Shown: positions 24,028 through 27,196, numbered from the stretch's first letter. The stretch: 64,000 bases of DNA from Myxococcales bacterium (GCA_016707895.1 JADJGV010000034.1:693625-757624); one strand, 5' to 3'. Numbers and translations are program-made. The notes: generated by a model from the letters alone, not told the origin.

Positions 24028-25020
24028 ATGCCGACCATGGCAACCGCACCTTCGACTGACTGGCGTGAGCAGATCGGCCCCGACGAGGCCGCCCGCCACG
24101 CCGCGCAGGCCGAGGGCCTGACCGCGCTGCAGGCCGCGCGCGCCGCCAAGCATGGCGCGGGCCGCGCGCTGCACCGCAAGGGCGTGCTCGGCCTCGCCGC
24201 GTCGCTGACCGTCAAGGACGGCCTGCCGGCGCACGCGCGCCACGGGCTGTTCGCGGCGCCCGCGACGTACGCGGCGTGGGTGCGGCTGTCCAACGGCGGC
24301 CCCGACGTGAAGGCCGATCGCCACCCCGACGTCCGCGGCTTCGCGGTGCGGGTCAACGGCGTCAGCGGCGACGCGGCGCTCGGCGGCGCCGCGACCCACC
24401 AGGACTTCGCGCTGATCAACGCGTCGAATTTCGGCTTCGCCGACAGCGCGCGGTTCCTCGGCCTGGTGCAGGCCGCGGCCAAGGGGCCGCTGGCGCTGGT
24501 CGGCTGGGCCTACCGCAGCTACGGCCTGGGCAAGATGTTCGGCGAGCTCAAGCGCCTGAAGGCGTCGGTCGAGCGGCGCTTCGACGGCTACGCCGCCCAC
24601 GCGTTCCACAGCGCGGCGCCGATCGCCTGCGGCCCGTACGCGGTGCGGGTGCGGCTGACCCCCGACGCGCCGGTGTCGCACGCCGACGCCAAGGGCGAGT
24701 ACGGCGCGGCGATGGCCCGGACCGTCGCCGCCGGTCCGCTGACCTACACGCTCGCCTTGCAGTTCTTCGTCGACGAGACCACCACGCCGATCGAGGACGC
24801 GTCGCGCGACTGGCCCGAGGACGTCGCGCCGTTCGTCGACGTCGCGACGCTGACGATCGCGCAGCAAGACGTGGCCGCGCCCGACGGCCAGGCGCTGGCC
24901 AAGCGCGTCGAGGCGACCGTCTTCGACCCGTGGCAAGCGCTGGCGGCGCACCGCCCCCTCGGCGAGGTGATGCGGTCGCGCAAGGTCGTCCCGGGCCGGC
25001 CGGGGGGGGGGGGCCCCGGG
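24028..25020 (+). CDS. catalase-related haem protein (small catalase-like domain), C-terminus destroyed by a poly-G tract
   Basis: Track ORF 24028..26193. Catalase-like blocks are HRKGVLG, RHGLFAAPATYAAWVRLSNGG, DVRGFAVRV, DFALINASNF, FHSAAPIACGPYAVRV and FDPWQALAAHRPLGEVMRSRKVV. After about 25000 the ORF runs into poly-G and is uninterpretable. Confidence 0.6.
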
Positions 25021-25082
25021 GGCGCGGGGGCGCGGGGGGGGGGGGGGGGGGGGGGGGGGGGGGGGGGGGGGGGGGGGGGGGG
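25001..25082. other. poly-G homopolymer tract 1 (probable sequencing/assembly artefact)
   Basis: About 80 nt of almost pure G (CCGGGGGGGGGGGGCCCCGGGGGCGCGGGGGCG then G x about 55). It replaces the convergent 3' ends of the catalase-like and pirin genes. Confidence 0.8.
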
Positions 25083-25089
25083 CAGAAGA

Positions 25090-25872
25090 GCTGGAGCTGG
25101 CGACGAAGTTCCACAGCATGTAGCGCGGGCCGTCGAGCGGCGCGCCGCCGAACAGCGCGACCCGGGTCGACGCGCGCGCGTGGAGCGTCGCCGGCGCGTC
25201 AGGCGCCAGCACCGCGAGCTCGTGGGGCAGGAGCGGCGCGGCCTCGCCATCGATCGCCAGCGCGCCGTCGACGACGTACACCGCGCGCTCGGGCTGGAAC
25301 GCCGGCACGTCGAGCGTCGCGCCGGCGGCCAGTTCGGCGATCACGTAGGTCAGCGGCGACCACACCCGCACCGGCGACGCGACGCCGGCCCACGCGCCCA
25401 GGAGCACCCGCAGCCGCGCGCCCGGGAGGTCGATCGCCGGCAGGCTGGCGGCCGGTGCGTGCTGGAACGACGGCGGATCGTCCTCGTGGGCCAGCGGCAG
25501 CGCGACCCAGGTCTGCAGGCCGTGCGAGATCGCCGCGACGCCGACCCGATCGGCCGGCGTGCGCTCGCTGTGGACGATGCCGCGCCCGGCGGTCATCCAG
25601 TTGACGTCGCCCGGCACGATCCGCTGCGCGGTGCCGAGGCTGTCGTGGTGCAGGATCGCGCCGTCGAACAGGTAGGTCACCGTCGCCAGCCCGATGTGCG
25701 GGTGCGGCGCGACCCCGCCGTCGGCGCGGCCGACGTCCTGGTGCGGGCCGAAGTGATCGAGGAAGCAGAACGGCCCGACGAACCGCCGCTCGCGCCGCGG
25801 CAGCGCCCGGGCCACCGGCAGCGCGTCGGCCATCGCCGGCTTCGCGGTCAGGCGCAGCTCGATGGGGCTCAT
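25090..25872 (-). CDS. pirin-family protein (bicupin), C-terminal about 20 aa lost in poly-G tract
   Basis: ATG at 25872 (residue 177 of track ORF 23914..26403). Pirin motifs are RRFVGPFCFLDHFGP, HPHIGLATVTYLFDG, HHDSLG and VNWMTAGRGIVHSE. It ends ...RYMLWNFVASSSSS, and then poly-P coded by poly-C (the complement of the poly-G tract). Pirins normally continue WNFVASSxExIxxAxxDWxxGRF. Confidence 0.75.
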
Positions 25873-25995
25873 CGCCGGGCTCCGGGTGACGACGCGCGCG
25901 CGTGCATGCCCAAGCCTGGCACAGGTCGCGCGCGCCGGGTCAGCGGGCGGCCCAGGCGGCGGGCTCGGCGGCCTCGATCTCGTGCCAGCGCAGCG

Positions 25996-26226
25996 GCGGG
26001 GGGGGCCGGGGCGGGGGGGGGGGCGGCGGCGGGGGACGGGGGCGGCGGGGGCCCCGGCGCGCGGGGGGGCCGGGCGCGCGCGCGCGCGGGGGGGGGGGGG
26101 GGGGCGGGGGGGGGGGCGGCGCGGGGGGGGGGGGGGGGGGGGGGGGGGGGGGGGGCGGCGATGCGGGGCGGGCCGCGGGGCGGCTGCCCGTGAGCGCGCC
26201 GGTGGCGGTCGACCTGAGGGGGGGGG
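25996..26226. other. poly-G tract 2 (G-runs interrupted by a few C/A; probable artefact)
   Basis: From 25996 to about 26226 the sequence is more than 85% G, including a run of about 70 consecutive G around 26100..26160. Confidence 0.8.
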
Positions 26227-26418
26227 TCGGGCGCGCGTGCGGTGCGGTAGGGCGCGCGCGGGGTGGCGTGGCGTCAGGACACGGTCTCCTTGCGCGATTG
26301 CAGACGGTGCAGGCGACAGCGCCACGTGCGCCGCGGGGGGGGCGGGCGCTGGCTGCGGGTGGGGCGGCCCTGGCGCGGTCTTCCGGGGGCCTGCGCTGCG
26401 CATCTTCTCGCGCTGCGG

Positions 26419-27196
26419 TCACGTCGAGGCCGCGGCCGGGGTGCGTCGGCCGAGCCCGAACCAGTCGCCGGTGAGCAGCCGGTTGGCGTCGGTGCCTGGC
26501 GGCACGTCGCGCTGGGTGATCGAGATCTGGCCGGTCGCTTCGTCCTTCTGCAGCACGAACACTTCGCCCGGGCGGGTGCCCTGCAGCGTCAGCGGGTTGT
26601 GCGTGCCGCGGGTGATGTCGAGCTGCCCGGGGCGGTGCAGGTCGGCTCATCGCCACCAGGCATGTCCTTGGCGAAGTTCTCGTCGAGCTTGCCGGTGTCG
26701 CGGTAGCGGTCAGCCCAGCGGGCGATCAGGTCGATGGTCCAGCCGAGCGTGGTCAGGTATCCGTCGCTCAGGCTGTTCAACGACGTCGCGCGTCCTGTTG
26801 AGCTGACGACGAGGACCTCGTCGGGTTCCACGAGCAAGTGGTCCACATCGGCGGGGGGGGGGGGCTCTTGCTGACGTCGCCCATTGGCTGAAGAGCGTGC
26901 CGGTCGCGCGGCGCGGCTCGAAGTCCACATCACGCGCCGGGCCACCTAGGGCCGTGCCTCGCATCGATCCATAGGAGAAGACATCGAGGCCCCCCGCCGG
27001 GTGGGCAATCGCCGCGATGGTGGTCCGGGGATCGAATTGCCACCGGTGGTCGCCGAGATTCGAGCGCACCAGGACGCGGCTGTTTGCGCCGCGGTACTAT
27101 CCCCTTGGGCAGGTCGACCTGGTCGATCCGGACCGCCGGGGCGCCCGGCCCGCGGGTCAAGCGGCGAGCTTTCTCGTTCTTCTCGGTGGTCGCCAT
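26419..27196 (-). pseudogene. disrupted ORF (at least two frameshifts plus an internal poly-G), hypothetical protein
   Basis: Start MATTEKNEKARRLTRGP at 27196 is preceded by GGAGG. Coding-looking segments continue in three different frames (…FDPRTTIAAIAHPAGGLDVFSYGSMRGTALGG…; …LVEPDEVLVVSSTGRATSLNSLSDGYLTTLGWTIDLIARWADRYRDTGKLDENFAKD…; …DLHRPGQLDITRGTHNPLTLQGTRPGEVFVLQKDEATGQISITQRDVPPGTDANRLLTGDWFGLGRR…). A G13 tract lies at 26853..26865. Confidence 0.35.

Follow-up and report, generated by a model that had tools for sequence, protein, structure and literature searches.

Long runs of guanine inside an otherwise near-perfect contig raise the question of whether they belong to the genome or to the way in which the genome was sequenced. 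We address this question for a window of 64,000 nt from a Myxococcales bacterium (GCA_016707895.1 JADJGV010000034.1:693625-757624; ~74% G+C), in which G tracts begin at the junction of two convergent genes, one for a catalase-like protein and one for a pirin, and continue into two genes beside ffh that in other assemblies of the species encode PtuA and PtuB, a putative Septu anti-phage pair. A sequence-only reading of the window had interpreted the tracts as an artifact of two-color sequencing chemistry or assembly that had overwritten the ends of the catalase-like and pirin genes. From a comparison with independent assemblies we conclude that positions 24990..27109 are very probably a sequencing and assembly artifact private to the source assembly.

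Within the window, runs of at least 7 G are confined to 25002..26864, all on the plus strand:

25002-25013, plus strand, run of 12 G (G12)
25034-25082, plus strand, run of 49 G (G49), the longest pure run
25998-26155, plus strand, runs G8, G11, G7, G17, G11 and G33
26218-26226, plus strand, run of 9 G (G9)
26335-26342, plus strand, run of 8 G (G8)
26853-26864, plus strand, run of 12 G (G12)

The pattern G11 has 75 matches, all of them on the plus strand within 25002..26864, as compared to 0.10 expected by chance and a maximum of 3 in 100 shuffles; in the remaining 62 kb of the window there is one C8 and no other such run. The presence of G tracts on one and the same strand, far above chance, had thus been read correctly, although their dimensions need revision. 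Runs of about 55-70 G had been described, whereas the longest pure run is G49; the interval 25996..26226, listed as a run of G, is in fact a G-rich mixture; and the supposed G13 at 26853..26865 is the G12 at 26853-26864. The affected span, first placed at 25001-26865, corresponds to a corrupted interval of 24990..27109.

Clean copies of the locus were retrieved by exact-protein look-ups with the products of intact neighboring genes, namely Ffh, PGK, a membrane protein of 216 aa and another protein of 414 aa. Sources of these contigs were ENA (MEGAHIT and SPAdes assemblies), Logan (several runs), JGI, NCBI (GCA_020050275.1) and a metagenome-assembled genome (MAG), the last of which contributed a contig of 373,592 bp that covers the entire region (CAXWNE010000036.1 of GCA_964269055.1, here L105). 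Two further contigs, L008 and L002, were combined into a composite clean reference, which L105 matches at 99.93% identity and without gaps. The clean contigs are 99.2-100% identical to one another and show zero insertions or deletions (indels) at the locus.

The G tracts are missing from L001-L009 and from L105, which are independent assemblies of the same organism, and within 21 kb of L105 all runs of G or C stay below 8. The window runs identical to the clean contigs up to position 24989, and agreement with them resumes at 27110, from where the window is 99.85% identical to L105 without gaps as far as 32346. Outside the G-tract patch and a second, shorter one, only scattered single nucleotide polymorphisms (SNPs) and no indels separate the window from L105 over the ~18 kb compared, and we therefore take the window assembly to be accurate in general and the error to be local. 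For the same reason, a localized natural decay of such size is implausible. That the tracts are missing from independent assemblies of the same species, including the 373-kb MAG contig, agrees with the earlier interpretation of an artifact rather than biology, and the warning that gene calls between 24.9 and 27.2 kb should not be trusted proves justified, since the patch 24990..27109 is corrupt relative to the clean copies.

No public contig with the G-tract artifact came up when Ffh and further proteins of the window were looked up by exact match. When the pirin and the poly-proline open reading frame (ORF) were used as protein queries, no identical entry was found. The best relative in a pirin query against genome contigs was 63% identical among the matches listed, and of two scans of metagenome contigs one gave no match and the other the JGI contig alone.

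The nature of the errors is most easily seen in 25998..27109, where degraded stretches intervene between perfect blocks of 21, 23, 156, 193 and 206 nt. At PtuB and the 3' end of PtuA, clean segments of 229, 142 and 795 nt are represented by 187, 88 and 132 nt in the window, and within PtuA segments of 109, 118 and 199 nt are represented by 54, 32 and 20 nt. Altogether 1115 reference bases are missing from the patch, and the window is in net terms 978 nt shorter than the clean sequence. The substitutions are strongly directional: 44 of the 51 are to G on the plus strand (A>G 17, C>G 16, T>G 11; binomial P = 6e-8 against p = 0.5), with no change to A or T, and G likewise makes up 114 of the 137 bases present only in the window (83%). 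The first ~60 nt of the second tract (25998..26226) are nearly in register with the reference, with a shift of 2 nt and with A, C and T turned into G, and this early part resembles a fading read. Set side by side, the assemblies demonstrate which sequence is wrong, which is correct, and that the errors are directed toward G.

The genes beneath this stretch are not the ones that had been singled out. Four genes, including the catalase-like gene and the pirin gene, had been thought to be corrupted, but the badly damaged ones are those for the Septu proteins PtuA and PtuB, which have been shortened by ~1.1 kb. The frameshift-ridden ORF at 26419..27196, correctly placed in the same patch by the sequence-only reading, is the wreck of PtuA. 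The remains are arranged as follows:

25940..26448, minus strand, remnant of PtuB and 3' end of PtuA, containing the second G tract (25998..26226), G-biased and deletion-ridden
26449..27109, minus strand, remnant of PtuA, three perfect blocks with junk and large deletions between them
26449-26604, 26659-26851 and 26884-27089, minus strand, the perfect blocks of PtuA relative to the clean sequence
26605-26658, 26852-26883 (with G12) and 27090-27109, minus strand, the junk segments of PtuA relative to the clean sequence
27110..27196, minus strand, intact 5' end of PtuA, start codon at 27196

Only 102 of the 825 bases of PtuB and 642 of the 1515 bases of PtuA are in perfect blocks. In the clean copies, the gene order is Ffh, PtuA (504 aa), PtuB (274 aa), truncated pirin and truncated catalase-like gene, with PtuA at 1906-3420 and PtuB at 3417-4241 of contig L002, that is with an overlap of 4 nt. 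PADLOC identified both proteins in the clean copy (PtuA 4.1e-60, PtuB 1.6e-39), and among Pfam domains AAA_21 was matched by the 504-aa protein and HNH was matched weakly. Judging from their genes, PtuA and PtuB are an intact Septu-type anti-phage pair adjoining ffh in the clean genomes. As in Septu systems, in which PtuA is an ATPase and PtuB an HNH nuclease, the ATPase and nuclease genes are adjacent. The pair differs in being of a distant subtype, as indicated by NCBIfam equivalog scores for PtuA and PtuB that are far under the cut-offs, in being a putative system known here from its genes, and in that both genes are wrecked in the window. We also considered whether PtuAB and the pirin gene form a recently acquired island, an idea that was abandoned on finding the same gene order in L095, an 86%-identical relative.

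At the other end of the patch, the first tract has a different character. The features at this junction are:

24028..24990, plus strand, catalase-like gene, 321 codons of real sequence, without ~10 C-terminal residues
24990..25090, plus strand, junk insertion of the first tract, 101 nt with 81 G, 16 C and 4 A, holding G12 and G49
25093..25872, minus strand, pirin gene, 260 codons, sequence intact, ending ...WNFVASS (Pfam Pirin 2.3e-31)

The sequence-only reading had assumed that real sequence was replaced here, and that the C-termini of both genes were lost under the G tract. However, the counterpart of the first tract is 0 nt long in L003, L004, L005, L006, L008, L009 and L105. All seven assemblies read cleanly through the junction, with CAAGGTCGT followed directly by CTGGAGCTGG and nothing between, so that the 101 nt are purely inserted. 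The first tract is a pure insertion at a natural deletion junction (with an offset of 0-3 nt), and no template has been lost. Ungapped comparisons of its non-G bases with other parts of the window, the continuing clean sequence and the related contig L094 gave matches at chance level. A resemblance to adapter sequence beside G49 extends over 6 nt only and was on direct inspection judged not to be meaningful. Coincidences between run lengths (33, 49, 101) and k-mer sizes, the read length or a gap of 100 N were discarded as numerology.

The truncations themselves are real. The Pirin domain of the pirin is complete, whereas the match to Pirin_C ends at profile position 86 of 103; pirin homologs of 286-297 aa continue past WNFV(S/A)S, which means that ~32-43 C-terminal residues are lost in the window allele. 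Homologs of the catalase-like protein have 325-334 aa and are annotated as catalase in several sources; the name catalase-like rests on these source annotations, and the fragment gave no match in Pfam, NCBIfam or PDB sequence searches. Positions 25091..25997 form a perfect block of 907 nt relative to the clean contigs that holds the pirin gene and the last 58 nt of PtuB. The early stop of the pirin was thus rightly noted, but not its attribution to overwriting by the G tract, as the truncation is also found in the clean contigs. Since both genes are cut short in the same way in all clean contigs of this haplotype, L009 (97% identity) and L105 among them, the truncations are natural and stem from a genuine deletion of ~153 bp.

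The recovery of the lost C-termini from close relatives, which the sequence-only reading had envisaged, failed with contigs of the same haplotype, which are equally truncated, but both gene ends are kept in L111 and L094. The former (GCA_943370995.1) shares 97.9% identity with the window across 20.9 kb, has 153 nt at the junction (L111 20983-21135) and encodes a catalase-like protein of 334 aa and a pirin of 291 aa; the latter, a relative at ~89% nucleotide identity, has 155 nt (L094 3224-3378). Just 15-16 nt separate the two stop codons in the intact allele, and the junction is flanked by sequence identical in the intact and deleted alleles, over 33 nt on its left and 26 nt on its right. The species accordingly carries two alleles at this site, intact and deleted. 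The flanks of the window match L005-L008 at 99.96-100% identity but L111 at only ~97% in this kilobase, where they differ from L111 at many positions immediately to the left of the junction, and they carry the haplotype with the deleted allele. Because of this, the first tract overwrites nothing known.

Two side observations belong to this part of the locus. In the clean contigs L003, L004, L008 and L105, gene callers report a 488-aa ORF (corresponding to window 24028-25494) in which the N-terminus of the catalase-like protein is fused to the antisense of the pirin gene, and the truncated pirin is missed altogether, an annotation trap in a high-GC genome. Furthermore, 345 nt to the left of the first tract, the window has a private C>G at 24645 (plus strand) relative to L003, L005, L006, L008 and L105. 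This change is synonymous (GTC to GTG), and may reflect either a natural SNP or a single over-called G.

How might such a patch have arisen? One hypothesis is that this stretch of the source assembly was probably built from very few and poor reads, that loss of signal in those reads would have been called as G, the dark base of two-color Illumina chemistry, and that the assembler or a polisher may have linked the good pieces via junk. The outcome would be a G-rich insertion of 101 nt, one-strand substitutions of G for any other base and a net loss of ~1 kb. G over-calling and poly-G upon signal loss have been documented for two-color chemistry (PMC13218037), and the patch resembles the artifacts of these Illumina instruments (NextSeq, NovaSeq) in its one-strand G runs, its substitutions to G, its gradual decay into G and its absence from independent data. 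Of the two-color origin put forward earlier, the notion of G as the default call is borne out by the spectrum of substituted and inserted bases. The attribution to the chemistry itself, as well as the low local coverage and the mixture of strains, are causes that we infer. Extreme GC as a reason for a drop in coverage was considered and rejected, as the clean sequence has an ordinary GC content of 0.65-0.78.

The position of the first tract may also provide a clue. In a mixed sample, an allele difference of ~153 bp could create a bubble in the assembly graph that opens and closes at the site of the tract, and weakly supported paths at such strain-variable sites might be filled with low-quality reads. 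We think that the junk was inserted at this site probably because the two alleles of the species differ exactly there; it is unlikely that the tract came to lie at the deletion junction by chance. Misassembly of metagenomes at strain-variable loci, through bubbles, gap filling or failed polishing, offers a parallel in that both patches of the window are situated on length polymorphisms (0 versus 153 nt here; 90 versus 169 nt in the second patch) and in that many public contigs of the species end within PtuB and the pirin gene. For the parallel to hold, the source sample would need to have contained both strain alleles.

Several observations weigh against this explanation in its simplest form. 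Poly-G classically occurs at the 3' ends of reads, as tails that read trimmers remove, and this alone cannot explain why, after G49, good sequence resumes on the strand that carries the G run (25083..25091). Beyond the first ~60 nt of the second tract there is no length-preserving overwrite, but instead an insertion of 101 nt and 1115 missing bases, and deletions are rare in Illumina reads. The junk at 27090-27109, 20 nt long, contains A and T and is not G-rich. The patch hence differs from typical two-color artifacts in that the tracts lie within a long contig, that good sequence follows a G run and that ~1.1 kb has been deleted. Because of the insertion and the deletions, an additional assembly error is needed; both the many deletions and the junk at 27090-27109 call for such a step. 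Candidates are a mis-joining via G-rich k-mers in common, the filling of gaps, and the polishing of a noisy long-read draft by reads that carry poly-G.

The last of these candidates leads over to an alternative that we regard as possible but somewhat unlikely, namely that a long-read or hybrid pipeline produced a noisy draft or a mixed-haplotype consensus that was left garbled where the short reads failed to polish it, with the G bias arising from poly-G in the polishing or from the consensus caller. Such a process would account for degraded segments that are compressed subsequences (795 to 132 nt, 199 to 20 nt) between perfectly corrected blocks, for the first tract being a pure insertion with its template kept, for both garbled patches lying on strain length polymorphisms, and for a contig of at least 64 kb. 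It is less easily reconciled with the lack of homopolymer or other indels elsewhere in ~18 kb compared with L105, and a run of 49 G together with an any-base-to-G spectrum on one strand is not produced by any long-read error mode known to us.

A more doubtful idea, which we consider unlikely, is that the first tract is a degraded remnant of the intact ~153-nt allele that has been overwritten by G calls. The junk is located exactly where the intact allele has an extra 153-155 nt, other degraded segments of the patch are compressed real sequence, and in a G-tolerant gapped alignment the tract obtained its best score against the 153-nt segment of L111 (23.5 versus a null mean of 19.4). The score is not significant, being reached by 13% of random segments (p ~0.13), a negative result that also counts against our preferred explanation; the flanks are those of the deletion-allele haplotype; and 101 nt are too short to contain both gene ends unless compressed. 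Very improbable, in our opinion, is a genomic origin of part of the patch, in which there would be extra DNA at the junction of the pirin and catalase-like genes, whether as the intact 153-nt allele or through a fresh insertion, with the first tract as its degraded trace, or in which the Septu locus would be truly rearranged, making the patch a hot spot of recombination or deletion beside ffh.

That the G tracts and deletions are altogether genuine, and represent a decayed Septu system with natural G tracts that are phase-variable or form G-quadruplexes, is hardly credible: all that speaks for it is the occurrence of the sequence in the window and the frequent strain variability of defense loci. 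Against it, flanks with 99.85-100% identity to clean strains enclose 2.1 kb with 51 substitutions (86% to G), many indels, G49 and G33; L105 has no run of 8 or more over 21 kb; at least seven assemblies have clean junctions; and we know of no mutational process that converts A, C and T to G on one strand. Phase-variable homopolymeric tracts, as in contingency loci, are similar in that a G run lies within or beside genes. Known tracts of this kind consist of a single run of ~8-20 nt at a position conserved across strains. The patch described here holds eleven runs, the longest of them 49 nt, accompanied by junk and deletions, and they are not found in the other strains compared. We therefore favor the hypothesis of a sequencing and assembly artifact.

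The second garbled patch lies in the spacer between the GAPDH and PGK genes:

13939..13999, strand not assigned, second garbled patch, in the spacer 13912-14008, holding the only C8 of the window

In clean contigs this spacer has 90 or 169 nt, depending on whether a 79-nt unit that includes a GC-rich hairpin is present once or twice in tandem, and in the window it consists of 97 scrambled nt. The low-coverage SPAdes contigs L101 and L104 terminate at this spacer in G/C homopolymer junk.

Other features of the window were also observed. An 837-aa ORF at 30744-33257 (plus strand) has identical copies on L105 and L114 for which precomputed Pfam matches to Vault_3 and MVP_shoulder are available, and on account of these matches it is predicted to be a major-vault-protein-like gene in a bacterium. 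At ~4.1-12.2 kb there are two adjacent very large ORFs (~1348 and ~983 aa) with faint matches to Cu-binding_MopE and with internal repeats, and in BLAST comparisons several segments at 6.5-11 kb resembled one another.

The significance of these findings is limited to data hygiene. Poly-G junk may sit inside a long and otherwise near-perfect contig, and such patches gather at strain-level length polymorphisms. Clean sequence should replace the gene calls in 24.99-27.11 kb, and the patch at 13.94-14.00 kb is likewise unreliable. A minor biological point is that two convergent genes lose their 3' ends together through a single polymorphic deletion of ~153 bp. If annotated as it stands, the window would be credited with poly-proline ORFs, a frameshifted ATPase and no defense system, whereas the organism has an intact, putative Septu pair beside ffh.

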